Shown: positions 8,973 to 63,904 of the stretch, piece by piece | How positions within the stretch are numbered: position 1 is the stretch's first letter | Layout of the letters: every line of letters starts with the position of its first letter | The notes under the pieces: generated by a model | What the model was told of the DNA's origin: nothing | The model's database searches: none | The model's input: the letters and a program-made list of their open reading frames with translations, nothing else | Assembly: GCA_002352465.1 (NCBI GenBank) | Contig: DEIN01000008.1 | Location: forward strand, 64,564 to 128,563 | Direction: 5' to 3' | Source: Patescibacteria group bacterium UBA2773 | GTDB lineage: Bacteria > Patescibacteriota > Minisyncoccia > Moranbacterales > DUUL01 | Length of the DNA stretch: 64,000 nucleotides | Position numbers and translations under genes: made by a program

Positions 8973-10433
8973 TTGAAAAATAAAAAAAATAAATTTAAAA
9001 TAATTTGGCCTCATTTTTTATTGAGATTGTTTTTATTGATTATTTTATTTGCTCTAATCTGGGGAGGATGTTTATTTATAAAAATCTATTCTTTTGAGAA
9101 AATTACAATCTTGAGTAATAATCAAGAACAATCTTCTACAATAATTTCTGCTACTAAAAATTTGATTAGTAATAAATCTAAAAAATTAAAAGGTGAAGAG
9201 AGAAAAAGAATTAACATCCTCTTATTGGGAATGGGAGGCGAAGGCCATAAGGGAGCCGATCTTACTGACACTATAATTTTAGCCTCCGTCGACCCTACAA
9301 ATTATGATACATCTTTAATTTCTATTCCAAGAGATTTATATGTTGAAATTTCTGATACTCAGATTTACACAAAGATCAACGCTGTTTACGCTTATGGTAA
9401 AAAAAATCCTAAAAAGAACGAAAATCCTATCGATTCAATTAAGGAAACTGTTGAAAAAATCACCGGTCAACCAATTGATTATTATTTAACTATTAATTTC
9501 GAAGGATTTAAGCAGGTTATTGATGAACTTAACGGAATTATTATTCAAGTCGAGAAAGATATAATCGACACTCATTATCCTGGACAGGGCACTTCTTATG
9601 AAACTTTCAGAATCAACCAAGGAACCCACTTGGTGAATGGTGACGTGGCTTTGAAGTATGCTCGAGTTAGACACGTAGCTGGCGGTGATTTTGCTCGACT
9701 CAAAAGACAACAAGAGATTATTTCATCTGCCAAAAGAAGGGCTTTATCAATTGAAAATTTTGTTAATCCAATTAAATTTACTAGTTTATTAAATATTGCT
9801 GGAGAAAATATTGAAACAAACATTCAGTTAGATGAAATTCCATCTTTCATCAAGCTTTTCAACAATATTAATACTTATGAAATGAATACCAAAGTTTTAG
9901 ATGCTTGGAGTTCAGATTCTTTATTGGCAGTTTCTCATGTTCTTTTGGGTAACGTAAATGCCTTTATTTTAGTTCCTCGAACTGGTAATTATAAAGAAAT
10001 TCAAAAATTGGTTGATAATATTTTTGATTTAGAGAAACAAGAAAAAGAAAAAGTGGAAATTAAGAAAGAAGCAGCTAATATAGTCATAATGTCAGAAAAT
10101 TATCAAAATAAAAATCAAATCAAAAATTTGTTTAAAAAAATGGGCTATGAAGTTACACTTGAAGAAAATCTTGAAATTACTAAAAAATGTCAAAATGAAA
10201 TTAAAATTCTAACTTCAATGAATGATAAATATTACACGTTGAATGATTTAACAAATAAATTTAATGCTAGAATCGAAGATCTTTATAATTTTATTTATCC
10301 AGGAGATATTATTCTTTGTTTTCCTAGTAAAGAATTAGAAAAACTAGAAAAACAAATCGATCAAATTAATGTTGATGAATTTGAAGGTGGACTAATCTTG
10401 GATGATGATGGTAATATACTTTACAACAATTAA
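8973..10433 (+). CDS. LytR-CpsA-Psr (LCP) family protein with C-terminal extension
   Basis: N-terminal TM; LCP core INILLLGMGGEG...ISIPRDLYV; 486 aa. Confidence 0.8.
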   Translation: MKNKKNKFKIIWPHFLLRLFLLIILFALIWGGCLFIKIYSFEKITILSNNQEQSSTIISATKNLISNKSKKLKGEERKRINILLLGMGGEGHKGADLTDTIILASVDPTNYDTSLISIPRDLYVEISDTQIYTKINAVYAYGKKNPKKNENPIDSIKETVEKITGQPIDYYLTINFEGFKQVIDELNGIIIQVEKDIIDTHYPGQGTSYETFRINQGTHLVNGDVALKYARVRHVAGGDFARLKRQQEIISSAKRRALSIENFVNPIKFTSLLNIAGENIETNIQLDEIPSFIKLFNNINTYEMNTKVLDAWSSDSLLAVSHVLLGNVNAFILVPRTGNYKEIQKLVDNIFDLEKQEKEKVEIKKEAANIVIMSENYQNKNQIKNLFKKMGYEVTLEENLEITKKCQNEIKILTSMNDKYYTLNDLTNKFNARIEDLYNFIYPGDIILCFPSKELEKLEKQIDQINVDEFEGGLILDDDGNILYNN

Positions 10434-10652: not shown

Positions 10653-11168
10653 ATGAAAATTATATTCGGTCTAGGTAATCCTGGCAAAAAATATCAAAAA
10701 ACTCGTCATAATATTGGTTTTATGATTTTAGATTTATTGGCAAAAGAATATTCAGTTCTTTTTAAATCGGATTCTAAAACCAATTCAGAAATAGCCGAGA
10801 TTGTTTATGCTGGAGAAAAAATTCTGCTTTGCAAACCGCAAACTTTTATGAATAATTCTGGACAAGTAGTTAGCAGTTTGACAAATTATTACAAACTTGA
10901 GTCTCAGGATATTTTGATTATTCAAGATGAAATTGATTTACCTTTCGGCCAAATCAAGTTTTCTGAAAATTCTGGTTCGGCTGGACACAAAGGAATTCAA
11001 TCAATTATTGATCATTTAAAAACAAAAGATTTTAAAAGATTACGCTTTGGCATAGAAAAAGAAGAAAATAAATTGGCTACAGAAATATTTGTTTTGAAAA
11101 ATTTTTCTAAAGAAGAATTTAAAATTATCGAAAAAATAAATTTAGAAAAGTTCCTAGTTACACTTTAA
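10653..11168 (+). CDS. pth: peptidyl-tRNA hydrolase
   Basis: MKIIFGLGNPGKKYQKTRHNIGF signature; 171 aa. Confidence 0.9.
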   Translation: MKIIFGLGNPGKKYQKTRHNIGFMILDLLAKEYSVLFKSDSKTNSEIAEIVYAGEKILLCKPQTFMNNSGQVVSSLTNYYKLESQDILIIQDEIDLPFGQIKFSENSGSAGHKGIQSIIDHLKTKDFKRLRFGIEKEENKLATEIFVLKNFSKEEFKIIEKINLEKFLVTL

Positions 11169-38328: not shown

Positions 38329-38538
38329 AAAATTCCTTTCAGTTTTTAACTAAGCTTATTATTTTCTTAATCACTTTACCACAACAAAGGGATTTTTCAA
38401 TGGAAAATTTATTGATTTTGGATTAGTTTTTTATAATTGATATGATAAATTTTCAATTTGTTTTGGAAATTAGTGTATGTTATTATTGAGATGTTTAATG
38501 GAATATTTTAAAAAATTTTATTCAAAGGAGGGTTTACC

Positions 38539-38691
38539 ATGTCCGAAAAGACTGAAGAAGCTAAACGACCTAGAAAGTTAAAGAAAAAACGTTGGAATGA
38601 TAAGCTTTTGTTATTAAATGCAAGTTCTGATCATTCCTCGAAAAACATCGAGGCTTTGAAAAGACGAGATGGAGTTTTAATCAGTAGATAA
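38539..38691 (+). CDS. small basic protein (50 aa) with consensus SD AAAGGAGGG
   Basis: Hand-translated MSEKTEEAKRPRKLKKKRWNDKLLLLNASSDHSSKNIEALKRRDGVLISR; strong RBS 7 nt upstream. Confidence 0.35.
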   Translation: MSEKTEEAKRPRKLKKKRWNDKLLLLNASSDHSSKNIEALKRRDGVLISR

Positions 38692-38709
38692 TGCAAAAAG
38701 GAGGTTGAG

Positions 38710-38880
38710 ATGTCTGAAAACAGAATAGAAATCAATAATCCTTTAAGTATCCAGAAAAAGGAAAAAGCATGGAAGGGGAAAACTTTTAACGAAAGATGCA
38801 AAGATGCAAAAAAAATGGTTGACTCACTTAAGAAAAAACCTATTTCAGAAAGGATATGGAGAATGAAATTTGACATTTAA
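38710..38880 (+). CDS. small protein (56 aa) with consensus SD AAAAGGAGG
   Basis: Hand-translated MSENRIEINNPLSIQKKEKAWKGKTFNERCKDAKKMVDSLKKKPISERIWRMKFDI; followed by terminator 38903-38938. Confidence 0.35.
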   Translation: MSENRIEINNPLSIQKKEKAWKGKTFNERCKDAKKMVDSLKKKPISERIWRMKFDI

Positions 38881-39257: not shown

Positions 39258-39327
39258 ATTATAAAAAATCAAAGAAGATGGTTTTAATTTTTGAAAAGAT
39301 ATAAATATAAAATTTAAAAATATAATT

Positions 39328-39498
39328 ATGATCAATATTATAAATTTATTAAAACAAAAAAAGTCTTTTATCTTTTATTTTTTTGGATCTTTTGTTGTTA
39401 TTTTTTTATTTGGCCAATATTTTTTTAATAGCTTGATTCTTCTTTTGATGGTTTGTCTATTTTTTTTTATGTTTTTCACAATTAGTGCCTTTTTTTAA
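39328..39498 (+). CDS. small membrane protein (56 aa), unannotated
   Basis: Hand-translated MINIINLLKQKKSFIFYFFGSFVVIFLFGQYFFNSLILLLMVCLFFFMFFTISAFF. Confidence 0.3.
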   Translation: MINIINLLKQKKSFIFYFFGSFVVIFLFGQYFFNSLILLLMVCLFFFMFFTISAFF

Positions 39499-39507
39499 AA
39501 ATCTAAT

Positions 39508-40023
39508 TTGACTTTATTGTTTGTATTTTTATTAACAATTATTCCGTTACAATTGCCAAGTGCTTATATTACGAAGAAATACTTATTTTCATATCTTTCA
39601 AATCCATTTTATTATTATCTAGTAAATTGGTTACTAATAATTTCATCAGGAATTTTAATTACGATTTTGTATTTTTTAATAAAAAGAACGATAAAATATA
39701 AAAAAATATTTGCTTCATTGTTTTTCGTTTTAATTATCATTATTAATTTATTTGGTACTTATTTTTATATTGTATTAGCAGGAACATTTTACAGCCCGAA
39801 TTATGACGGATGTGGATCAAAATTCAACAAAGCTTTTCTAGAGGGAGCTGAAAATAATGACAATTATTTTTGCTCAAATCTAGAAATATTGATAAATAAA
39901 ACTGATTACCATTCAACCTGGGGTGGTGGTAAATATTGTCGAACTCCTAATAATATTATTATTGAAAAACACAACAAAGAAAAAAATTGTTTCAAAGCAT
40001 TTTCTATGTTTGAACAAAATTAA
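39508..40023 (+). CDS. membrane protein with Cys-rich extracytoplasmic C-terminal domain
   Basis: ORF track; 3 TM then CGSKF...FCSNLE...YCRTP...NCFKAF cysteines. Confidence 0.4.
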   Translation: MTLLFVFLLTIIPLQLPSAYITKKYLFSYLSNPFYYYLVNWLLIISSGILITILYFLIKRTIKYKKIFASLFFVLIIIINLFGTYFYIVLAGTFYSPNYDGCGSKFNKAFLEGAENNDNYFCSNLEILINKTDYHSTWGGGKYCRTPNNIIIEKHNKEKNCFKAFSMFEQN

Positions 40024-40470: not shown

Positions 40471-40657
40471 TGAACCTACTCCTTTCTTTTATTATTTTCA
40501 AATAGCTCAAAATCTAATTATAGCTTTTTTAAATAATTTGTCTAGATTTTAGAACATTAAAAATCTATTGAAAAATTATATCGTTTGTTCTAAATTTAAG
40601 TTGTATTCAAAAAGTATTCTCCTAAAATATAATCATATTCCAAAAAAGGAGCTTAAT

Positions 40658-40858
40658 ATGTCTAATTTTGAAAAAATTTCCGAAATATTAGCCGATAATA
40701 TGAGAAATTTGGAAAATAGTATGGGATTTGCCTGCCATCAATCAACAATAAAAATTATTCGTGTTGTTGACGAATGGGGACGAATAACTTTTGATAAAAT
40801 TACATTAATCAAAAATATTCCAATTTGGAAAGGAAAAGTAAATGATTTCAAAAATTGA
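40658..40858 (+). CDS. small hypothetical protein (66 aa; start adjusted to MSNFEK with AAAAGGAG SD)
   Basis: SD 8 nt upstream of ATG; hairpin GGGACAGC/GCTGTCCC downstream. Confidence 0.35.
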   Translation: MSNFEKISEILADNMRNLENSMGFACHQSTIKIIRVVDEWGRITFDKITLIKNIPIWKGKVNDFKN

Positions 40859-40978: not shown

Positions 40979-41224
40979 ATGAACAAAAATAAATATTGGT
41001 TTAAACCGAAAAAATATGGTTATGACTTCACTCCGATTTCTTGGGAAAGTTAGATTTTAACTTTAATTTTTGTGACTTTAATTTTTATTTCAGCTTATGC
41101 TAATAATGTTTTTTAGCCTTTCATTAAATTAAAAAACGGTTGTCGATTTTTGTTGGATATAATTATTTTGACTTCTCTGTTTTCTTTGATTTCAAAAAAC
41201 AGATTAAGAAACGGCTTAGCTTGA
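40979..41224 (+). pseudogene. small membrane protein gene (MNKNKYWFKPKKYGY...) interrupted by two in-frame TAG codons
   Basis: Hand translation: MNKNKYWFKPKKYGYDFTPISWES*ILTLIFVTLIFISAYANNVF*PFIKLKNGCRFLLDIIILTSLFSLISKNRLRNGLA*; no frameshift. Confidence 0.4.
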
Positions 41225-41383
41225 AGCTGGGAAAACAAAAAATAAGATTTAATTTTTCTACCATTCTTCAGTAAATAGTAGAAAATAATTTTATTTTATT
41301 TGTCGAAAAAGTGAACAAAAAATATTTTAAAAGCGGACTCATTTTTTACAAGCCCGCTTTTCTTTTGATTTTTTTATCAATTT

Positions 41384-41695
41384 TTATCCAAATTGATTCC
41401 CGATTTCGATGAAATCAACCTCGAGTGCACCAGTTGGAATCTCTAGTCGAGGTTTTTCTCCTTCGGCTATCCAATAACAATCGGCGCTCAATCCACCATT
41501 AACCATAAAAACTGTTTCCAGTAAAATACCGTCTTTGTTATAACGAGTTTTTTCAAAACCCTGCATAATTATAACCGAACGATATACGCCACCATCTTTC
41601 GAAAAAAGCATAAATGGTACTTTACTTTTCAATTCATCTTTATCAAATTGTCCCATTAAAAATGATTGAACTGGATTTATTCCCTTTGTTTCCAT
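41384..41695 (-). CDS. hypothetical small protein, paralog of adjacent gene
   Basis: Shares LLE(T/I)VF...G..AD.YW(I/L).EG..PR core with 41728..42045; strong SD AAAGGAG. Confidence 0.5.
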   Translation of the reverse strand: METKGINPVQSFLMGQFDKDELKSKVPFMLFSKDGGVYRSVIIMQGFEKTRYNKDGILLETVFMVNGGLSADCYWIAEGEKPRLEIPTGALEVDFIEIGNQFG

Positions 41696-41727: not shown

Positions 41728-42045
41728 TTAACTTAATATATTTTCTTTAATTTTAATCCTATCAATCCATAATGGTTTATAATAAGAACGAAATTTAATT
41801 CGAGGCAATTGACCTTCTGTCAACCAATAAAAATCAGCATCATAAACACCATGAGTTGAAAAAACAATCTCCAGAAGTTCTCCATTTGGTCCTTGCTCAA
41901 ATTTTACCGAATCACTGTTAACGATAACTGAATTATATAAAGCGTGACCAGAAACGATGCTTAAATATGTTGAATAACCAAAATTATTCTTTAGAAAAAT
42001 CTGAGTTAAAACTGCTTGAACTTCATTTGATTTTTTCATAGTCAA
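41728..42045 (-). CDS. hypothetical small protein, tandem paralog
   Basis: Strong SD AAAGGGAGGAA; similarity to 41384..41695. Confidence 0.5.
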   Translation of the reverse strand: MTMKKSNEVQAVLTQIFLKNNFGYSTYLSIVSGHALYNSVIVNSDSVKFEQGPNGELLEIVFSTHGVYDADFYWLTEGQLPRIKFRSYYKPLWIDRIKIKENILS

Positions 42046-42307: not shown

Positions 42308-42835
42308 ATGAAAAAAATCATTGTTAGTTCAAAAAATCCAGTTAAATTGGAAGCTTCCAGAAAAGGTTTTGAAAAAATGTTTCCTGAAGATAAATTTGAA
42401 TTTGTCAGCCTAGACTCATCTTCTGAAGTTCCCGACTAACCAATAGGAAATGAATAAACTTTTCAAGGCGCTCAAAATAGAATCAAAAACGCTCAAAGAG
42501 AAATTCCAAACGCTGATTTTTATATTGGAATTGAGGGTGGAATAAATTTAAAAGAAAAAGACACGGAAATTTTTGCTTGGATAATAATTGAATCAAAAAA
42601 TCAAATTGGAAAATCCAGAACTGCGACTTTTTATCTTCCAGAAAAAATGAATAAATTTTTAAAAAAAGGCGAGGAAGTTGGAATTGTGACGGATTTAGTT
42701 TTCAAAACTAATAATTCGAAGCAGAAAGGTGGCGCAGTCGGAATTTTAACCGATGGCATTGTTAATCGAACTAAATGTTATGAAGATTCAGTTGTTTTAG
42801 CCCTGATTCCGTTTAAAAATTCAGATTTATATTAA
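42308..42835 (+). pseudogene. inosine/xanthosine triphosphatase (YjjX/Maf-Ham1-like) with two in-frame TAA codons
   Basis: Hand translation aligns along its length with E. coli YjjX (SSEVPD*PIGNE*TFQGAQNR vs [33 protein letters not shown]); stops replace conserved Q and E codons. Confidence 0.6.
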
Positions 42836-42920
42836 TAGTACCATTTCCAATCATAAACCAAAATATCCAATTCAAATTTACGTAATTAATTACGTAAACG
42901 ATTACGTAATCCAAAAAAAA

Positions 42921-49109: not shown

Positions 49110-50078
49110 TTATTTCATTAAAGCTTTTATTATAAGTTCGGTAGCTTGGTTTTCATTTAAACCACGGGTCATTAGGGTTTCTAGTTCTTTTTGGTTGATT
49201 TTTCCCACTGAAGCCTCGTGGGTGACGCGAGCTTGATCATTGGTCACCTCAACGATTGGAACGGCTTTAGCAACTGAATTTTTGCCGATTACAATCTCTT
49301 GGCAATCGATATGACCGAAAGCACCAGGAGCTTTGGCAAAAGTTTCTCCTTGCATCCAAACTTGTCCACCATTTTTGGCAGCCGCTCTCATCGTCACGAG
49401 ACTTTTGCTATTTTCTCCTTCCAAATGAATGATGTCGGTTATTCTGACTTCATCTTTTTTGTTAGTTCCAAAAACTTTGGTTCTAATTTCCGCTCTGGCA
49501 TTTTTCTTCAAAAAAGCTTCTAGGACGATTTCGACTTTTCCAACGGTCCCTTTAGTTAAATTAAAATCACTTTCAAATTGCCCGTCTTCGTCAATTTCAA
49601 TTTTCAATTTCGGTGTCACAGTTGCTCCAGATTTTTCACCGTGATAGTGTTGCTCAATATAAGAAAATTTAGCATTTTTTCCAATCTTAAAAACACCTTC
49701 CATATTGTGATGATTGTCTTTGGAATTAGGAAAAGTGCAATGCGAATGAATAACGACTTCAGAATTTTCTTCTAAAATAATTTCTGGATAAATTGCCTGG
49801 GTTTCTTTTCCTCCTTTTAACCCAAAACAAAAAAACAATGGCTCTTTGATTTTTTGATTTTTTTGAACAATAATTTTGGCTTTTACTCCACTCTCAAGTT
49901 CTTCATAAATAGCTTTAATTCCTTTCGAAAATGTTTGAATTAAAACTTCATTTCCTTCTACGAAAAATTTGTTCTTACTTTTTAGAAGCTCTCTCATTCC
50001 GCACATTTTAGCAGTTTTGATGAAAGCTTCTGGCAATTTTTTATTATTCTTTATTTGAGGTTTTTTATTAAAAAACAT
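49110..50078 (-). CDS. SufB/SufD-family Fe-S assembly protein (short, stand-alone)
   Basis: C-terminal beta-helix and THEASVGKINQKELETLMTRGLNENQATELIIKAL SufBD signature; no sufC/sufS nearby. Confidence 0.55.
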   Translation of the reverse strand: MFFNKKPQIKNNKKLPEAFIKTAKMCGMRELLKSKNKFFVEGNEVLIQTFSKGIKAIYEELESGVKAKIIVQKNQKIKEPLFFCFGLKGGKETQAIYPEIILEENSEVVIHSHCTFPNSKDNHHNMEGVFKIGKNAKFSYIEQHYHGEKSGATVTPKLKIEIDEDGQFESDFNLTKGTVGKVEIVLEAFLKKNARAEIRTKVFGTNKKDEVRITDIIHLEGENSKSLVTMRAAAKNGGQVWMQGETFAKAPGAFGHIDCQEIVIGKNSVAKAVPIVEVTNDQARVTHEASVGKINQKELETLMTRGLNENQATELIIKALMK

Positions 50079-53000
50079 TAAATTACAATATTTATTAATT
50101 TTCCTTTAATATAAATCATTTTTTTAATAGTTTGCCCTTTAAGATGTTTTTTAATTTTTTCAGATTCTTGAGCAATTTTTTTGATTTCATCTTCTTCGAC
50201 TCCGATTGAAACTGTTATTTTATTTCGAACTTTTCCATTGATTTGAATCACTAGTTCAAATTGGTCATCTTCCAAATTTTCCTCATTATAAGCTGGCCAT
50301 TTTTCAAGAAAAATTGATTTATCGTTCTTTAATTTGGTCCAAAATTCTTCAGCAATGTGAGGTGCCATTGGAGCTAAAACTAACGCCATTGTTCTTTTGA
50401 TTTTTTGAGTTTGTCCTAAATTAAAGTTCGCAGAATTTTCTCGAATCCAATTAATAAATTCCATATATCGAGCAATGGCCGTGTTGAAAGAAAGTTTTTC
50501 CAAATCCTCTCCAATCGCCTTGATAGTTTTATCAATCATCTGAGTTTTTTCTACGCCTTCTCCTGCCCCCTCTAAATCAAAAAAAGTTTGCCAAAGTTTT
50601 TTCATGAATCTCGCCATTCCGGCTGCTCCATCATCTCGCCAATCGCCACCTTGAGAAAAATCTCCCAAAAATCTGAGATAAAGCCGAACTGCATCCACTC
50701 CATATTTTTCGATCATCTCATCAGGATTAATGACATTACCTTTAGATTTGCTCATCTTGGCACCATCTTTGGTAATCAAACCGTGACCAAAAAATTTCTT
50801 GTAAGGTTCTTCAAAATCGATAAAGCCCAAGTCGTTCAAAACCATTGTGATAAACCGAGAATACAACAGATGTAAAACGGTATGTTCTTTTCCGCCAATA
50901 TAGCTGTCAACCGGCAACCATTTTTTGGCTCGGTCTTTATTGATAGCCTCGTTATCAAACTCGGTTGAAGAATATCTCAAGAAATACCAAGAAGAATCTA
51001 CAAATGGATCAGAAACGTCCGTTTCTCTTTTAGCTGGTTTACCGCAAACAGGACAAACGGTATTCACAAATTCTACGTTTTTAGCCAACGGCCCTTTGCC
51101 TTTTCCTTCTGGCAAAAAATCAATCATATCTGGCAATTCTACTGGCAAATCTTTTTCTGGCACTGGCACCGCTCCACATTTTTCGCAGTGAATGATTGGA
51201 ATTGGAGGTCCCCAATAACGTTGTCTTGAAACACACCAATCCCTGAGTTTATAGTCGATTGATTTTTCGCCTAGTTTTTTCTCTTCCAGCCATTTGATCA
51301 TTTTTTGCTTGGCTTTTTCCGTTTTTAAACCATCTAAAAATTCAGAGTTGATAGATTTTCCAATCATAGAAGAACAAATTTTTCCTTCTTTTAAGTCTTT
51401 TATAAATTCATCATACGCAATACCACTATTTTGACCTTCAAAAATAATTGGTCCACCTATGGGCTCAACAACGCATTTAATTTCAATCCCAAACTTTTTG
51501 GCGAATTCAAAATCGCGTTCGTCGTGGGCGGGAACGGCCATAATGGCGCCAGTTCCGTAGCCAGACAAAACATAGTCAGCTACCCAAATTGGGATTTCCG
51601 CTTGGTTGACTGGGTTAATAGCTTTGATTCCTTTTATTTCAACGCCAGTTTTTTCTTTTTCTTCTTCTTTCCGTTCTTGTTCAGATTTTCCTTTAGCCGT
51701 ATCAATATATTTCTGCACTTCTTCCCAATTTTTTATTTCATCTTTCATTTTTTCAATCAATTTGTGCTCTGGTGCCAAAACCATATAAGTTGCACCAAAA
51801 AGCGTATCCGGCCTGGTCGTAAAAACTTCAATTTGATTTTCTTTTTTCTCTTCCAATATCTCACTAAGAAGCTCCGGAAATTCCTCTGTTTTCATATCTT
51901 GAATAGTAAAATGTCCATGATTTTTTAAATTAATAACCTTAGCAGGAAGCTCTTTTTTGTATTCTTCTGCTCCTTGAATATGCTTTGGTATATCATCATT
52001 GGAAGTAAAAATAACGATTTTATTTTTCACATATAAATCAATATTTTTAATGATTTTACCTCCATAAAAACTAGATAAAACTTCTCTGCTTTGTTTTCCA
52101 GATTTTCCTGGAGAAACTAAAATTAATTTTTTAATTTTAGTTTTTGTTTCATTTAACCAACGAACCAAGAAAGCTCCGCCAGCAGAATGTCCAATTAAAA
52201 TAGAGTCTTCATTGATATCAATTTTGTCAAAAATCTTTTTCCAATCTGAATATTTTGGTGCCCAATCTTTAGGATATATTTCATTAGAAACTTTTATTCC
52301 TTTTTCTTTTAATTTATTATTTAGCCACAATTTCCAATGTCTTAAATTTTCTGGACCGCTCTCCTTATTCTCTGAGCCTTCTTTAGTAGAATTACTTCCA
52401 TGAACAATCACCACATTTGATATTTGATATTTTGAATTTGTTTGTTTCTTGTTTCTTGTTTCTTGTTTCTTGATTGAAATTTCAAATTTCACCCTTGCAC
52501 CTTCAGATTTTCCAATCCAGTTGCGTTGATTGATTTTGACATCTTCTGACCAGTCAATCCACTCAAGGTTTTTTAAAAGTTTTTCAGCGTAGTCAGTGAT
52601 TTTAAAAAACCATTGCTTAAGTTCTTTTTTCTCAACTTGTGACTCACAACGCTCACACTTCCCTTGAATAACTTGTTCATCAGACAAAACTGTTTTACAC
52701 CACGGACACCAATTGACCTTGGCTTTTTTTTGGTAGGCTAGACCCCTTTTAAAAAGTTGCAAAAATAGCCACTGGGTCCATTTGTAGTATTCTGGTTTAT
52801 AAGTCTCCACAGTTCTGGACCAGTCATACATATTTCCAATAGAAGACAATTGTCTATAAAAATTTTTCTCAGTTCGTTCAGAAACTGTTTTGATGTGCTC
52901 TCCGATTTTCATCGCATAATTTTCGCTATGAATTCCAAAACCGTCCAAGCCAATTGGTTCAAAAATATCAAAGCCTTGCATTTTTTTGTATCGGCCATAG

Positions 53001-53197
53001 GTGTCCACTCCAGTGAAAGTGTAAACTCCGCCGATGTGCAATCCTTCGGCGCTAGGATAAGGAAACATCATTAAATTATGAAATGGTTTTTCAGCTTTAT
53101 CTAAATCGGGTTGATAAAGTTTATCCGTTTCCCATTTATCCTTCCATTTTTTTTCGATTTTTTTGAAATTATATTCTGGAATTTTTTGCTCTGGCAT
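50078..53197 (-). CDS. leuS: leucyl-tRNA synthetase with inserted RBBP9/YdeN-type alpha/beta serine hydrolase domain and shortened CP1 editing domain
   Basis: LeuS N-terminus MFPYPSAEGLHIGG (HIGH variant), WIGKSEGARVKFE, TTRPDTLFGATY, GTGAIMAVPAHDERDF, AKMSKSKGN; insertion VVIVHGSNS...HW / IGHSAGG / TSNDDIP / NHGHF between WIGKSEG and TTRPDT. Confidence 0.9.
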   Translation of the reverse strand: MPEQKIPEYNFKKIEKKWKDKWETDKLYQPDLDKAEKPFHNLMMFPYPSAEGLHIGGVYTFTGVDTYGRYKKMQGFDIFEPIGLDGFGIHSENYAMKIGEHIKTVSERTEKNFYRQLSSIGNMYDWSRTVETYKPEYYKWTQWLFLQLFKRGLAYQKKAKVNWCPWCKTVLSDEQVIQGKCERCESQVEKKELKQWFFKITDYAEKLLKNLEWIDWSEDVKINQRNWIGKSEGARVKFEISIKKQETRNKKQTNSKYQISNVVIVHGSNSTKEGSENKESGPENLRHWKLWLNNKLKEKGIKVSNEIYPKDWAPKYSDWKKIFDKIDINEDSILIGHSAGGAFLVRWLNETKTKIKKLILVSPGKSGKQSREVLSSFYGGKIIKNIDLYVKNKIVIFTSNDDIPKHIQGAEEYKKELPAKVINLKNHGHFTIQDMKTEEFPELLSEILEEKKENQIEVFTTRPDTLFGATYMVLAPEHKLIEKMKDEIKNWEEVQKYIDTAKGKSEQERKEEEKEKTGVEIKGIKAINPVNQAEIPIWVADYVLSGYGTGAIMAVPAHDERDFEFAKKFGIEIKCVVEPIGGPIIFEGQNSGIAYDEFIKDLKEGKICSSMIGKSINSEFLDGLKTEKAKQKMIKWLEEKKLGEKSIDYKLRDWCVSRQRYWGPPIPIIHCEKCGAVPVPEKDLPVELPDMIDFLPEGKGKGPLAKNVEFVNTVCPVCGKPAKRETDVSDPFVDSSWYFLRYSSTEFDNEAINKDRAKKWLPVDSYIGGKEHTVLHLLYSRFITMVLNDLGFIDFEEPYKKFFGHGLITKDGAKMSKSKGNVINPDEMIEKYGVDAVRLYLRFLGDFSQGGDWRDDGAAGMARFMKKLWQTFFDLEGAGEGVEKTQMIDKTIKAIGEDLEKLSFNTAIARYMEFINWIRENSANFNLGQTQKIKRTMALVLAPMAPHIAEEFWTKLKNDKSIFLEKWPAYNEENLEDDQFELVIQINGKVRNKITVSIGVEEDEIKKIAQESEKIKKHLKGQTIKKMIYIKGKLINIVI

Positions 53198-54748: not shown

Positions 54749-54751
54749 TTG

Positions 54752-54824
54752 TGGACCAGACAGGACTTGAACCCGCTACCTCCTCAGTGCAAATGAGGTG
54801 CTCTACCAGGTGAGCTACTGGCCC
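54752..54824 (-). tRNA. tRNA-Ala (anticodon UGC)
   Basis: Hand-folded cloverleaf: acceptor GGGCCAG with G3:U70 wobble, D-arm GCTC/GAGC, anticodon loop TTTGCAC; no encoded CCA. Confidence 0.8.
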
Positions 54825-55019
54825 ATCACAAATTACTGTTAAACTATAAATTTAAGCAATCTTAAACAAGTAAAATTTCTTTACGAAAATTAAAATTTTT
54901 AAGTTAAATTATTTGAAATATTTCCGATACCTATATTCATAGGTTGAGAAAATTTTCAGATAATTTAACTAAAAATTTGAATTTGCAGTAGAAAAAGTGC
55001 TCGACAATAATTCCTCCTG

Positions 55020-55093
55020 TGGGCATATCAAGATTCGAACTTGAGACCTCAACATTATCAGTGTTGCGCTCTAACCAACTGAGCTATATGCCC
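55020..55093 (-). tRNA. tRNA-Ile (anticodon GAU)
   Basis: GGGCATATAGCTCAGTTGGTTAGAGCGCAACACTGATAATGTTGAGGTCTCAAGTTCGAATCTTGATATGCCCA folds as cloverleaf; loop CTGATAA. Confidence 0.85.
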
Positions 55094-58583: not shown

Positions 58584-58765
58584 TCTAAAAACCCTTGAAA
58601 AGGGTAAAACTCCCTCAATTTTACCGTAATGGTTAATTTTTATTTTTCATTACTAAATATTGAATAGTTACTTACTTAATGATAACATATCCTTTCAATG
58701 ATAATCCTGTTTTGGGATATTCCAAAATAGGTTTTAAACTAAACTATAATCTATCATTAAAAAAT

Positions 58766-58987
58766 ATGTCAAAAAATATTTATACAAAGGAATATAAGAG
58801 ATTATTAGAGAAATTAAAACAAGCGAGAAAAGATTCTGGATTAACTCAACTAGAAATTTCTCAAAAAATAGACAAGCCTCAATCTTTTATTTCCAAATGT
58901 GAATTAGGCGAAAGAAGAATCGACCCCATTGAATTATCGAAATTTGCAAAAATTTACAAAAAGGATATTAATTTTTTTATTAAATAA
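58766..58987 (+). CDS. XRE-family HTH protein, candidate R-M controller (C) protein (start adjusted to MSKNIY)
   Basis: HTH LTQLEISQKIDKPQSFISKCELGERRIDPIELSKFAKIY; 73 aa; immediately precedes endonuclease gene; TATAAT ~18 nt upstream of ATG. Confidence 0.7.
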   Translation: MSKNIYTKEYKRLLEKLKQARKDSGLTQLEISQKIDKPQSFISKCELGERRIDPIELSKFAKIYKKDINFFIK

Positions 58988-58996
58988 ATTAGAATT

Positions 58997-59560
58997 ATGA
59001 AAATCAAGCAACACAAAGCAAAAGTTTTTAATCAAGATTGTATATTAGAGCTAATGACTTTTAATAAAAGTGACGGCAAAAAATGGAAAAGACTTTTTGA
59101 TATGTGGAAAAAATTAAAATTAAGTTTGCGTGATTATAAGTCTCGAGAGCCAAATTTTCCTGAAGGATTATCAGAAGTGGCTTTTTGTTTGTTTTCTGGA
59201 TCAAAAAGATTCATATCTTTGAAGGGAAAATCAGCAGCTTCTTTTGATACTTTTAACACTGAAACTGGAAAGGCAGAGCAAATTAAAGCTTGTAGTGTAA
59301 AATCTGATCTAACTTCTTTCGGCCCTAATTCAAAATGGAACGATTTATATTTTTTAGATTTCTACAACGAAGGAAAGCTTGATGGGACTTTTAATGTTTA
59401 TAAAATTCCTTCAGAATCAATTTACAACATGAAAGTTAACAAAAAACAGACAATGAAACAGCAACAAAATCAAGGCAAACGACCAAGATTTAGCATTACT
59501 GACAAAATAATAAAAGATAAAAAGCTAAAACCAATCGCAGAAAACGTAAAAGTTTGGTAA
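58997..59560 (+). CDS. putative type II restriction endonuclease (small, PD-(D/E)xK-like; Bsp6I-like size)
   Basis: 187 aa; candidate catalytic block SFDTFNTETGKAEQIK; convergent and 8 bp from a C5-MTase; downstream of C-protein gene. Confidence 0.55.
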   Translation: MKIKQHKAKVFNQDCILELMTFNKSDGKKWKRLFDMWKKLKLSLRDYKSREPNFPEGLSEVAFCLFSGSKRFISLKGKSAASFDTFNTETGKAEQIKACSVKSDLTSFGPNSKWNDLYFLDFYNEGKLDGTFNVYKIPSESIYNMKVNKKQTMKQQQNQGKRPRFSITDKIIKDKKLKPIAENVKVW

Positions 59561-59568
59561 ATAGAAAA

Positions 59569-61143
59569 TTATTCGATTGCCTTTATCATTTTTTTAGCCA
59601 CAGCTTCCAAAACAGTTACTGTCACGGAATTTCCAGCTTGTTTATATAAAGCAGAATCAGAAAGATCTTTCGGCAAGATGAAGCTTTTAGGAAAACCTTG
59701 TATTCTAAAACATTCCAAAGGGGTTAATTTCCTGATGCCTTTGTTGTCTTTTATAATTGGTACATTATGTCCACCCATTCCCATATTAGCCGTTAAGGTT
59801 GGACAAACACATTTTTTATTTTCTCTAACATATTTTCGTCTCCATTGATAAACAGTGTTTTTATCAACAACAAAATCTTTTATTTTTTCATACAAAGGTT
59901 TACCTTCATAATAATATTTTTTATCAATATTCTTTTCTAATAAATCTTGCACGCTTACATTTAGTTTTACTGGATCAGGAAACTCAAAATTTTCTAAATG
60001 TTTTTTGTCTTTGAATCCAACAATGTAAATTCTTTCTCTATTTTGAGGAACATTTCCAAATTCCATACTATTTAAAACTTTGGCATCTGTGTGATAACCA
60101 AGATCTTTAAGTTTTTTCATTATTATTTTAAATGTTTTTCCTCCATCATGACCTTTCAAATTTTTTACATTTTCTAGTAAAAATCCTTTCGGCTCTCTGG
60201 ATTCGATAATTCTAGCAACATCAAAAAACAAATTCCCTCTTCCTTTTTCGTCTTTGAATCCATGTCTGTGACCAGCGATTGAAAATGCTTGACAAGGAAA
60301 TCCGCCCAAAAGAAAATCAAATTCTGGCAAATCATCAATTCCAATTTCTCTTATATCTTCAACGATTAATTTGGATCTTTTAAAATTTAAATCATAAGTT
60401 TTTTTACAATGTTCATCAAAATCATTAGCAAAAACAGTTTTGAATCCAGTTTTTTCAAATCCTAATCTTATTCCGCCCACTCCAGCAAATAAATCAATAG
60501 TTCTTAGTTTTTTTTGATTGGTGGGTTTAATGTCATTTTTAAAGCTTCTAACAATTTTAACTACAACGCCTCTGATTTCAACTTCTTCTCTGTAAAAGGG
60601 CAACATTGTTTGATTGGCTGGTTGTAATCTAAAGCAATTTTTCTCTCGGTAGATTTTTTTTAAAGTTGTTTCATTATCATCTATTATTGCAACAACAGTT
60701 TGACCATTTTCGGCAGATGATTGTTTTTTTATTACCACAATATCACCATCGAATATTCCTTCCTCAATCATACTTTCTCCTTTTACCTGTAAAGCATAAT
60801 ATTCTTGATTTTTTTGAATTTCTTTTTGCAAAATAGGAATTGTTCCTCTTTCAACTTCAATCGCTTCGATTGGTTTTCCGGCCGTAATAATACCAACAAT
60901 AGGAATATTGATTATTTTTTTTATTTTATTTTTTATTACCGGAACAATGCCTCTAGCAGAACTCCCTTCTTTATTTAGAAAACCTTTTTCTGATAAAGTT
61001 TGAATATGCTGATGCACTGTAGAAATAGCAGAAAGTTTAAAATGTTTTTTTATTTCTTCAAAAGTAGGAGATATTTTATTCTTTTTTATGTAACTTTTAA
61101 TGTAGTCCAAAATTTGTTTTTGTCTTTTTGTCAGAGTTGGCAT
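59569..61143 (-). CDS. LexA (wHTH + S24 autopeptidase) fused in-frame to DNA (cytosine-5)-methyltransferase
   Basis: Residues 1-200 align with LexA along its length (LTKRQKQILDYI...SARGI; cleavage-site AG in VGIITAGKP; Ser in KGESM; Lys in TTLKKIYR); residues ~205-524 carry C5-MTase motifs I FAGVGG, IV GFPCQAFS, VI ENV, VIII QNRERIYIVG, X QAGNSV. Confidence 0.85.
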   Translation of the reverse strand: MPTLTKRQKQILDYIKSYIKKNKISPTFEEIKKHFKLSAISTVHQHIQTLSEKGFLNKEGSSARGIVPVIKNKIKKIINIPIVGIITAGKPIEAIEVERGTIPILQKEIQKNQEYYALQVKGESMIEEGIFDGDIVVIKKQSSAENGQTVVAIIDDNETTLKKIYREKNCFRLQPANQTMLPFYREEVEIRGVVVKIVRSFKNDIKPTNQKKLRTIDLFAGVGGIRLGFEKTGFKTVFANDFDEHCKKTYDLNFKRSKLIVEDIREIGIDDLPEFDFLLGGFPCQAFSIAGHRHGFKDEKGRGNLFFDVARIIESREPKGFLLENVKNLKGHDGGKTFKIIMKKLKDLGYHTDAKVLNSMEFGNVPQNRERIYIVGFKDKKHLENFEFPDPVKLNVSVQDLLEKNIDKKYYYEGKPLYEKIKDFVVDKNTVYQWRRKYVRENKKCVCPTLTANMGMGGHNVPIIKDNKGIRKLTPLECFRIQGFPKSFILPKDLSDSALYKQAGNSVTVTVLEAVAKKMIKAIE

Positions 61144-62421: not shown

Positions 62422-62919
62422 TTGATAAAATTTAAGAAAAATATTATGGGACGAATAGAAATACTAGAAAAACTAAACATAGAATTAAAAAAAGATATTC
62501 ATACTGAATGTCAGGTGGTTTATATTTTATCTAAGATTAGGAAATGTCTTGAGATCAATAATCAAAAAAGTGAATATAAATATTTAAACTTTTATTGTAA
62601 TTGGGCTTTACATTCAAAAATTAATAGAGCTGAACCAGTGGCAGATATTATAAGAGAATTTATAAACGACAAGGATAATGGAAAATTTTTGCAATTTGAT
62701 TATTTAATAAAAGATTTAAGAAGATTTTTTAAAGATAATTCACTTTCGAAAAAATTATTTGAAACTGAAAATTATTTAAGATTCGCTAATTTATTAGTCG
62801 AAATTTATTCGGATACTCCGCTGGAGATTTACTGTGAAAGAAAAAGAATAATTACAATAAAAAAACCACTCAAAAAGTTAACAGAAAGTGTCTTTTCTAT
62901 TGCCTATGAAATTAAATAG
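62422..62919 (+). CDS. hypothetical protein
   Basis: ORF track. Confidence 0.35.
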   Translation: MIKFKKNIMGRIEILEKLNIELKKDIHTECQVVYILSKIRKCLEINNQKSEYKYLNFYCNWALHSKINRAEPVADIIREFINDKDNGKFLQFDYLIKDLRRFFKDNSLSKKLFETENYLRFANLLVEIYSDTPLEIYCERKRIITIKKPLKKLTESVFSIAYEIK

Positions 62920-63451
62920 TTATGTAAATTTAAAGTTCAATATAAAAACCCGATTGTTAAATTTTGAAAATAATAAAGTCTATGATAAATGAAAAAATAG
63001 AAAAATTTTTAAGAAATTTAATTTTAATAAGCATAAATTTAAAAATCAGGCTTTTTATACAGACGGTAGTCTAGGTTTCAGCGTTAGAAAAGATTCATTT
63101 AATAACGATGGAAACGCCACACAACTATCTGTTTATGTTTATGAAAATGATACAAGCAACAAAGATTCCAATAGAAAACCTCTTGTTATAAATACAACTT
63201 ATGGGATAGTAACTTCGGATGGTGGTATCAGAATTCGCTCCAATCCGAAACTTAGTGATCCTGTTGATTTTGAATCACACGGTTCATATTTCTATGATAT
63301 TAAAACAGAAAAATTTTATAAGAAAAATAAAAAAATTAATGCCGATAAAATCATTGAAGAAATTTATAATAAACATATAAAATCAACCAGATTTTTTGGA
63401 GGTTTTTGGCTTAGATCAAAAATATTTTTTTGGAAATTCTTTCTGCGGTTA

Positions 63452-63904
63452 TTGTTCTGGTCTATATCAAAAATATTTTATTTATTGCTTTATATTATTT
63501 CGGGGGATAAATATTCCTATGAACCATTTTTCGAAGAAGAAACTTTGAATGGAAAAATATTTAAATCTCGACTTAGACCGCCAATTGAAAATGTAAAAAA
63601 TGATGAAAAATTAAAAGAAGATCTAAAGAAAAGCGCAAAAATTAGTTTTTTTAATCATGAAGTTAGACATTGGCCAATAGTATTTTACTCAATATCGCAC
63701 GGATTATTTTATGTACTATTTATGTTAAAAAATTATAAACCTATTATTTTAATAACAGTATTTAAAAACAACTTTTTAACAATAATATACGTAATCTTGT
63801 CACTTTGGCTTGTTGAGACAATTACACCAAAATGTTTAATATTTTTGATTAAAATTTTTTCTAGATTGTCATTTACATCTCAATATAAATCTATAAATAT
63901 TTAG
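63452..63904 (+). CDS. membrane protein; reading frame is open ~440 nt further upstream without canonical start
   Basis: ORF track gives TTG start at 63452; same frame open back to a TGA near 62995 with no ATG/GTG/TTG. Confidence 0.35.
   Translation: MFWSISKIFYLLLYIISGDKYSYEPFFEEETLNGKIFKSRLRPPIENVKNDEKLKEDLKKSAKISFFNHEVRHWPIVFYSISHGLFYVLFMLKNYKPIILITVFKNNFLTIIYVILSLWLVETITPKCLIFLIKIFSRLSFTSQYKSINI

Follow-up and report, generated by a model that had tools for sequence, protein, structure and literature searches.

A yjjX-family pseudogene closed by two in-frame TAA codons, and a second broken gene upstream, in a reduced Patescibacteria genome

The yjjX locus at 42308-42835 of the 64-kb window, by which we mean the whole stretch of DNA analysed here, is a pseudogene of the YjjX family and not a working member of it. 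The uninterrupted reading frame for a YjjX enzyme of about 175 aa is not present: two in-frame TAA codons, each a single base away from the sense codon found in orthologues, close it early. A second gene on the same strand, 1.06 kb upstream, is also broken. Very probably this is gene decay of an ordinary, local kind, in a CPR genome that is reduced and AT-rich, with yjjX as a very young pseudogene made by two point substitutions. The phenomenon is a known one, and the sequence-only reading from which this analysis started had observed it correctly. The features of the locus are as follows.

42308 to 42835, + strand: gene of the yjjX family (inosine/xanthosine triphosphatase), now a pseudogene; colinear with intact orthologues and free of indels
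42437 to 42439, + strand: in-frame TAA at yjjX codon 44; ancestral CAA (Gln), with T42437 arising by C>T
42455 to 42457, + strand: in-frame TAA at yjjX codon 50; ancestral GAA (Glu), with T42455 arising by G>T

The yjjX frame, its orthologues and its constraint

The interval 42308-42835 translates into 175 codons, two of them TAA, and closes with the gene's own TAA terminator (MKKIIVSSKNPVKLEA...SSEVPD*PIGNE*TFQGAQNR...LALIPFKNSDLY*). The central peptide is exactly the one first reported, and the accompanying claim of a full-length colinear match to YjjX was borne out by family searches run on the protein with the two stops turned back into Q and E. The repaired protein matches Pfam PF01931 NTPase_I-T (E = 3e-51, profile positions 2-161 of 162), scores 197.3 bits against the NCBIfam equivalog NF003459 for inosine/xanthosine triphosphatase (cut-off 175), and matches over residues 1-175 the solved structures of VC0702 (1zno, 1e-45) and E. 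coli YjjX (1u5w, 6e-33). Its closest 18 homologues are 175-176 aa long, apart from one partial record, P0005, of 152 aa, and the alignment with them contains no indels except in one variable loop. Relative to the closest 175-aa homologues the window gene has neither frameshifts nor indels, again as had been claimed, and every one of the 40 columns invariant among the 18 is preserved. The residues lost to the stops are themselves conserved: column 44 is Q in 120 of the 120 best homologues and column 50 is E in 118 of them, and both are replaced by TAA in the window. The two stops lie 18 bases, or 6 codons, apart, and translation would end after 43 residues. The next in-frame ATG, GTG or TTG 3' of the second stop is codon 114, and no active YjjX fragment is therefore expected.

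Three other ways of accounting for the interruption were considered and dropped. Ribosomal bypass or frameshifting does not fit, since the alignment with the homologues stays in frame across PIGNE, the five codons that separate the stops. Mutagenesis of the DGR type does not fit either, as the changes are at C and G and not at A. A search for a repeat or mobile-element boundary around yjjX returned only AT-rich chance repeats. Separately, the 85-bp convergent spacer between yjjX and rmlD contains three copies of a palindromic motif, TTACGTAA (TTTACGTAATTAATTACGTAAACGATTACGTAA), at 42863-42900, which may bind a regulator or act as a terminator in both directions.

The LepA protein encoded in the window is 63-71% identical to proteins of Candidatus Moranbacteria/Moraniibacteriota (Patescibacteria, CPR) and 84-87% identical to those of closer relatives. 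Four syntenic relatives were compared, namely L001 (a 530-kb JGI contig), L016 (GCA_964643985.1), L017 (ENA ERZ27315536) and L018 (GCA_964458715.1). All four share the order murJ, rml genes, NUDIX, rmlD, yjjX, a few small ORFs, lepA and the ATP synthase operon, so that yjjX is flanked by rmlD on one side and, on the other, by the small ORFs next to lepA; in a fifth relative, L014, yjjX adjoins rmlD. The gene is intact in all five, with 175-176 codons. Six orthologues were read at the DNA level, and all 6 have CAA for codon 44 and GAA for codon 50. Each yjjX stop is thus one base away from the orthologous codon, and the lesions are C>T and G>T point substitutions. The orthologue check proposed at the outset therefore found the gene intact wherever it was read, four times at the rmlD-lepA locus, and disabling lesions set against intact orthologues at a syntenic locus mark the window copy as a pseudogene. 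No intact allele from the same species was present among 5.8 billion clustered proteins, where the best match was 75% identical, and no same-species copy was present in GTDB representative genomes or JGI metagenome contigs, which held only distant relatives at 54% identity or less.

The partial homologue P0005 comes from a further record, L013 (GCA_900162855.1, FUWD010438984.1). There, within positions 1-140, an A8 run close to the N-terminal end of the gene contains a +1 frameshift, and the protein is called with 152 aa. A protein identical to P0005 is full-length and intact in L017 and L018, and so the frameshift in L013 looks like a homopolymer sequencing error.

Apart from its stops, the window gene resembles a gene under selection. 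It deviates at 3 strongly conserved columns, against a mean of 1.96 over 120 homologues (33% of which deviate at three or more), and a single residue is unique to it, where the same 120 have 2.5 on average. Against relatives, its pairwise dN/dS of 0.09-0.12 equals that found between intact genes. Lineage-specific codon changes, counted as synonymous/missense, are 27/16 in the window and 27/19 and 26/17 in L016 and L017. Neither excess missense change nor indels, the signature of relaxed selection, are thus found in yjjX. Judged from these comparisons, the gene looks as constrained as its intact relatives and would either have been inactivated very recently or still be under selection; without a signature of relaxed selection, the pseudogene reading fits a very recent hit only. 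The original suggestion of recent inactivation by C>T and G>T hits accords with this, the orthologues being CAA/GAA and intact and the window lineage showing no excess of amino-acid change.

One signal that might have been taken for neutral drift in yjjX was set aside. Changes from GC to AT are in excess in the window lineage of the gene (26:17; the ratio over five control genes is 136:282, Fisher p = 6e-4). The surplus, however, does not alter amino acids, and GC3 is similarly low in 4 of 9 other + strand ORFs measured (8973-10433, 10653-11168 and 40568-40858 among them). The window as a whole is about 30% GC.

We also asked how often stops of this kind should arise. In the reconstructed intact yjjX, a single substitution can turn 73 of the 175 codons into a stop; of random substitutions, 5.7-7.8% would create one, depending on the AT bias assumed. 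Once a first stop is present, each further neutral substitution has a chance of about 6% of giving a second, and two independent nonsense hits would fall 6 or fewer codons apart in about 6% of cases. If the hits were independent, the yjjX pair is mildly improbable, and a single clustered mutation event may explain both nearby TAA codons. Treating all lineage-specific non-synonymous events as neutral draws, the probability of at least two stops in yjjX is 0.37-0.54 and that of at least three in the small upstream gene is 0.17-0.38; when only excess events are counted, p is about 0.03-0.10. The stop counts are not strong enough to demand a special mechanism.

The upstream small membrane-protein gene

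The description of yjjX as interrupted only by two TAA codons holds for the gene itself but not for its surroundings, where 40979-41245 carries three further stops. This second pseudogene is absent from the annotation. It was found by tblastn of all genes called in L001, L016 and L017 against the window.

40979 to 41245, + strand: second pseudogene, an 88-codon gene for a conserved small membrane protein; colinear with its orthologues and free of indels
41051 to 41053, + strand: in-frame TAG at codon 25 of the small gene; ancestral TGG (Trp), changed by G>A; W in 11 of 11 homologues
41114 to 41116, + strand: in-frame TAG at codon 46 of the small gene; a variable column (I/T/S/K in relatives)
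41222 to 41224, + strand: in-frame TGA at codon 82 of the small gene; ancestral TGG (Trp), changed by G>A; W in 11 of 11 homologues

The translation in the window reads MNKNKYWFKPKKYGYDFTPISWES*ILTL...NNVF*PFIK...NGLA*SWENKK. An orthologue is called in L001, L016 and L017 (85-88 aa), always upstream of yjjX and in the same orientation. The family comprises 11 intact homologues of 78-90 aa with the invariant motif YWFKPK.YG.GF.P.SWEGW, and no Pfam family matched the protein. Beyond its stops, the window copy has changed at residues invariant in 11 of 11 homologues (G16D, G24S) and at residues common to L016 and L017 (A27L, Q48F, K79G, G85E). In total it has accumulated about 16 lineage-specific amino-acid changes, compared with 6 and 11 in the relatives. 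The signature of relaxed selection is therefore seen here; all three types of stop occur across the two genes, and the small one, with invariant residues lost, shows real decay. The small gene is a real pseudogene, somewhat older than that of yjjX. The sequence-only reading had allowed that the region might simply be decaying with additional lesions; the small gene comes close to that description, and yjjX itself carries no further lesion.

The damage is confined. Coverage by tblastn extends from 25.9 to 50.1 kb, about 24 kb of synteny with more than 30 genes, of which exactly two, yjjX and the small gene, have in-frame stops. A gene on the opposite strand separates these two, and they are accordingly not an operon. 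Between the two pseudogenes, the window has two intact paralogous ORFs in tandem, each of about 103 aa (41384-41695 and 41728-42045, - strand) and of no known family; relatives have one homologue at the position of the pair (66% identity in L017).

On the preferred reading of local decay, selection would have lapsed in a short stretch, about 40.9-42.9 kb, carrying two same-strand genes. The gene for the small membrane protein would have decayed first. Inactivation of yjjX would have followed very recently, by CAA>TAA at codon 44 and GAA>TAA at codon 50, with the product truncated after 43 residues and YjjX presumably no longer made. The likely cause would be relaxed selection under AT-biased mutation in a reduced genome. 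Set against this reading, neither gene has an indel, yjjX apart from its stops looks fully constrained, and the nearness of its two stops is mildly improbable for independent hits.

Read-through, artefact and selected loss

The preserved constraint on yjjX could also mean that the gene is still expressed, both UAA codons being decoded by near-cognate tRNAs or by an ochre suppressor tRNA whose gene lies in a phage or in another part of the genome, with full-length YjjX made at a low level or conditionally. No loss of constraint besides the two stops is what such read-through would leave, and CAA and GAA, the codons expected at the two sites, are near-cognate. The first stop, moreover, has C at +4; of the 31 real TAA terminators in the window just one shows this TAAC context, which is thus the rarest. 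TAA is nevertheless the dominant terminator. The 49 long ORFs of the window end in TAA 31 times, in TAG 13 times and in TGA 5 times, so that TAA is neither rare nor absent as a terminator. The window uses the standard genetic code, and the early exclusion of a global code change stands. Nor is TAA met with inside the frames of conserved genes at large: of the more than 30 compared, yjjX alone has it, and one other, the small gene, has in-frame TAG and TGA.

ARAGORN and Rfam agree that the window encodes three tRNAs and no others: Ala(TGC), Ile(GAT) and Gln(CTG). No suppressor tRNA was found within the 64 kb of the genome that the search covered, or at the related loci fetched; one could be encoded elsewhere in the genome. 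Stops that are read through by programme are conserved in orthologues, whereas sense codons occupy both positions in all six orthologues here. UAA is recognised by both bacterial release factors, and its basal read-through is roughly 1e-4 to 1e-3 per site; with two such sites in series, the yield of YjjX would be negligible without a dedicated suppressor. To our knowledge, there is no report of a bacterial genome in which the ochre codon (UAA) is reassigned or suppressed. A stimulatory RNA structure was sought in the 120 nt from just 5' of the first yjjX stop and was not found there (the MFE is -15.2 kcal/mol, shuffled sequences average -17.8, and z = +0.78). A survey of recoded phages names clades for TAG and TGA recoding only (10.1101/2021.08.26.457843). 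The neighbouring gene weighs most directly on the question. Five nonsense codons of all three types fall in two adjacent genes, one of which lacks invariant residues; TAA-specific read-through cannot explain this pattern, and no single suppressor accounts for both genes. We regard continued expression of yjjX by read-through as highly improbable, and the context-specific ochre read-through offered by the sequence-only reading is unsupported. A broader form of the idea, in which both genes are still translated through conditional omnipotent stop-codon suppression (supplied, for example, by a phage or under stress), or in which a targeted, substitution-only mutational process silences the strand locally, seems to us scarcely credible.

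Scanning the frames of the window gave other in-frame TAA candidates. At 39295-40023 the TAA (at 39496) lies outside the gene, as homologues begin where the ORF 39508-40023 begins. The candidate at 58664-59560 is two separate genes, for an HTH controller and a Bsp6I-like endonuclease. Those at 38512-38880 and 62993-63904 had no homologues in Pfam.

Several of these places have features of their own. The ORF 39508-40023 (+) encodes a membrane protein of 171 aa. Its only homologues, of 241-348 aa and 29-35% identity, are at least about 90 aa longer at the C-terminal end, and the protein may be truncated or lack a domain. The endonuclease belongs to a restriction-modification module at 58680-61143, with an HTH_3 controller, the Bsp6I-family endonuclease at 58997-59560 and, on the opposite strand at 59569-61143, a 524-aa protein matching LexA DNA-binding, S24 peptidase and DNA methylase domains, an unusual fusion. 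The interval 62993-63904 (+) is a 303-codon open frame in a region of 24% GC with no ATG, GTG or TTG in its first 152 codons; it may be the frameshifted continuation of the ORF 62422-62919 or use a non-canonical start. The tRNA-Ile(GAT) and tRNA-Ala(TGC) genes lie adjacent at 54751-55093 (-), as in a 16S-23S spacer, and Rfam found no rRNA gene in the 64-kb window. The leucyl-tRNA synthetase at 50078-53197 (-) is 1039 aa long with an internal match to a Ser_hydrolase-type domain; its orthologue in L001 has 1302 aa, with further inserted hydrolase and NUDIX matches.

The stops might also not be present in the organism at all, and could reflect sequencing error, damage (C>T by deamination, G>T by oxidation), a consensus artefact or a minority allele picked by the assemblers. 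Changes of C>T and G>T are the two classic signatures of library damage, and the two yjjX substitutions are of precisely these types. The homologue record L013, too, carries an apparent homopolymer error. At least the first yjjX stop nevertheless recurs across assemblies. A Logan assembly of 16,098 bp (L002, SRR5324197) matches the window along its entire length at 100% identity, both TAA codons included, and its contig is recorded from two samples. An ENA assembly of 128,655 bp in the MEGAHIT style (L015) is 100% identical over 12,705 bp elsewhere in the window. Gene calls in the NCBI, JGI/IMG, ENA and Logan copies include the 43-aa fragment closed by the first yjjX TAA, on contigs of 132,122 bp (the longest), 128,655 bp and 16,098 bp.

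Among assemblies of the population, then, both stops are seen in one and at least the first stop in others, and their agreement makes an assembly slip unlikely. All are 100% identical and may derive from the same or sister read sets; they may represent one clonal population or even overlapping reads. Contigs of about 130 kb nevertheless imply good coverage, in which random damage would not enter the consensus, and the roughly 16 lineage-specific amino-acid changes and three stops of the neighbouring gene are evolutionary divergence and not error. Taken together, these points make it very unlikely that the stops are absent from the organism.

Judged from the assemblies, the stop allele of yjjX appears to be fixed in the population, which raises the possibility that the loss itself was selected: YjjX, and the upstream membrane protein if the two are partners, would have become disadvantageous to keep, and a knock-out allele would have swept the population. 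The allele is seemingly fixed in every assembly and an intact one is absent from the records, as a sweep would predict. How the two disrupted genes are placed relative to each other, and their orientation, do not vary among the relatives examined, and this would be compatible with a functional link; within 24 kb no other gene is broken. A sweep or a functional coupling is nonetheless without direct evidence; the small protein is of no known family, and with the opposite-strand gene between them the two genes are not an operon. Drift in small, bottlenecked CPR populations would explain fixation equally well. Selected loss is, in our view, an unlikely explanation.

Implications and comparison with known systems

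Local decay of the two genes would add one more case of ongoing gene loss in a reduced CPR genome, in a lineage able to do without a house-cleaning NTPase of the YjjX type. It also bears on annotation: gene callers have split yjjX into 'proteins' of 43 aa and 62 aa that now stand in public protein databases. The joint decay of yjjX and a conserved 88-aa membrane protein is a weak hint of a functional link between them. Were read-through to be demonstrated, the yjjX case would become important.

Compared with the YjjX/VC0702 family (PF01931, NF003459; PDB 1u5w, 1zno), the window copy is alike in its full length of 175 aa, in its colinearity, in its genomic position, which is that of related CPR genomes, and in keeping all family-invariant residues with the exception of the two stop positions. 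It differs in that its frame is closed at the Q and the E of the conserved DQP...ET motif. Systems of stop-codon reassignment or suppressor tRNAs (codes 4, 15 and 25; recoded phages) resemble the window in having in-frame stops at positions where orthologues have sense codons. In those systems, however, the codon recurs in many genes, is depleted as a terminator and is accompanied by a suppressor tRNA or altered release factors, whereas the window ends its genes mainly with TAA, has in-frame stops of three kinds in just two genes, and yielded no suppressor tRNA. With the nonsense pseudogenes of reduced, AT-rich bacterial genomes the window shares single-base GC>AT stops, intact orthologues, a neighbour that has decayed further and a GC content of about 30%. 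For that class, the window yjjX is unusually fresh, with no detectable missense excess, no indels and its two stops only 6 codons apart.
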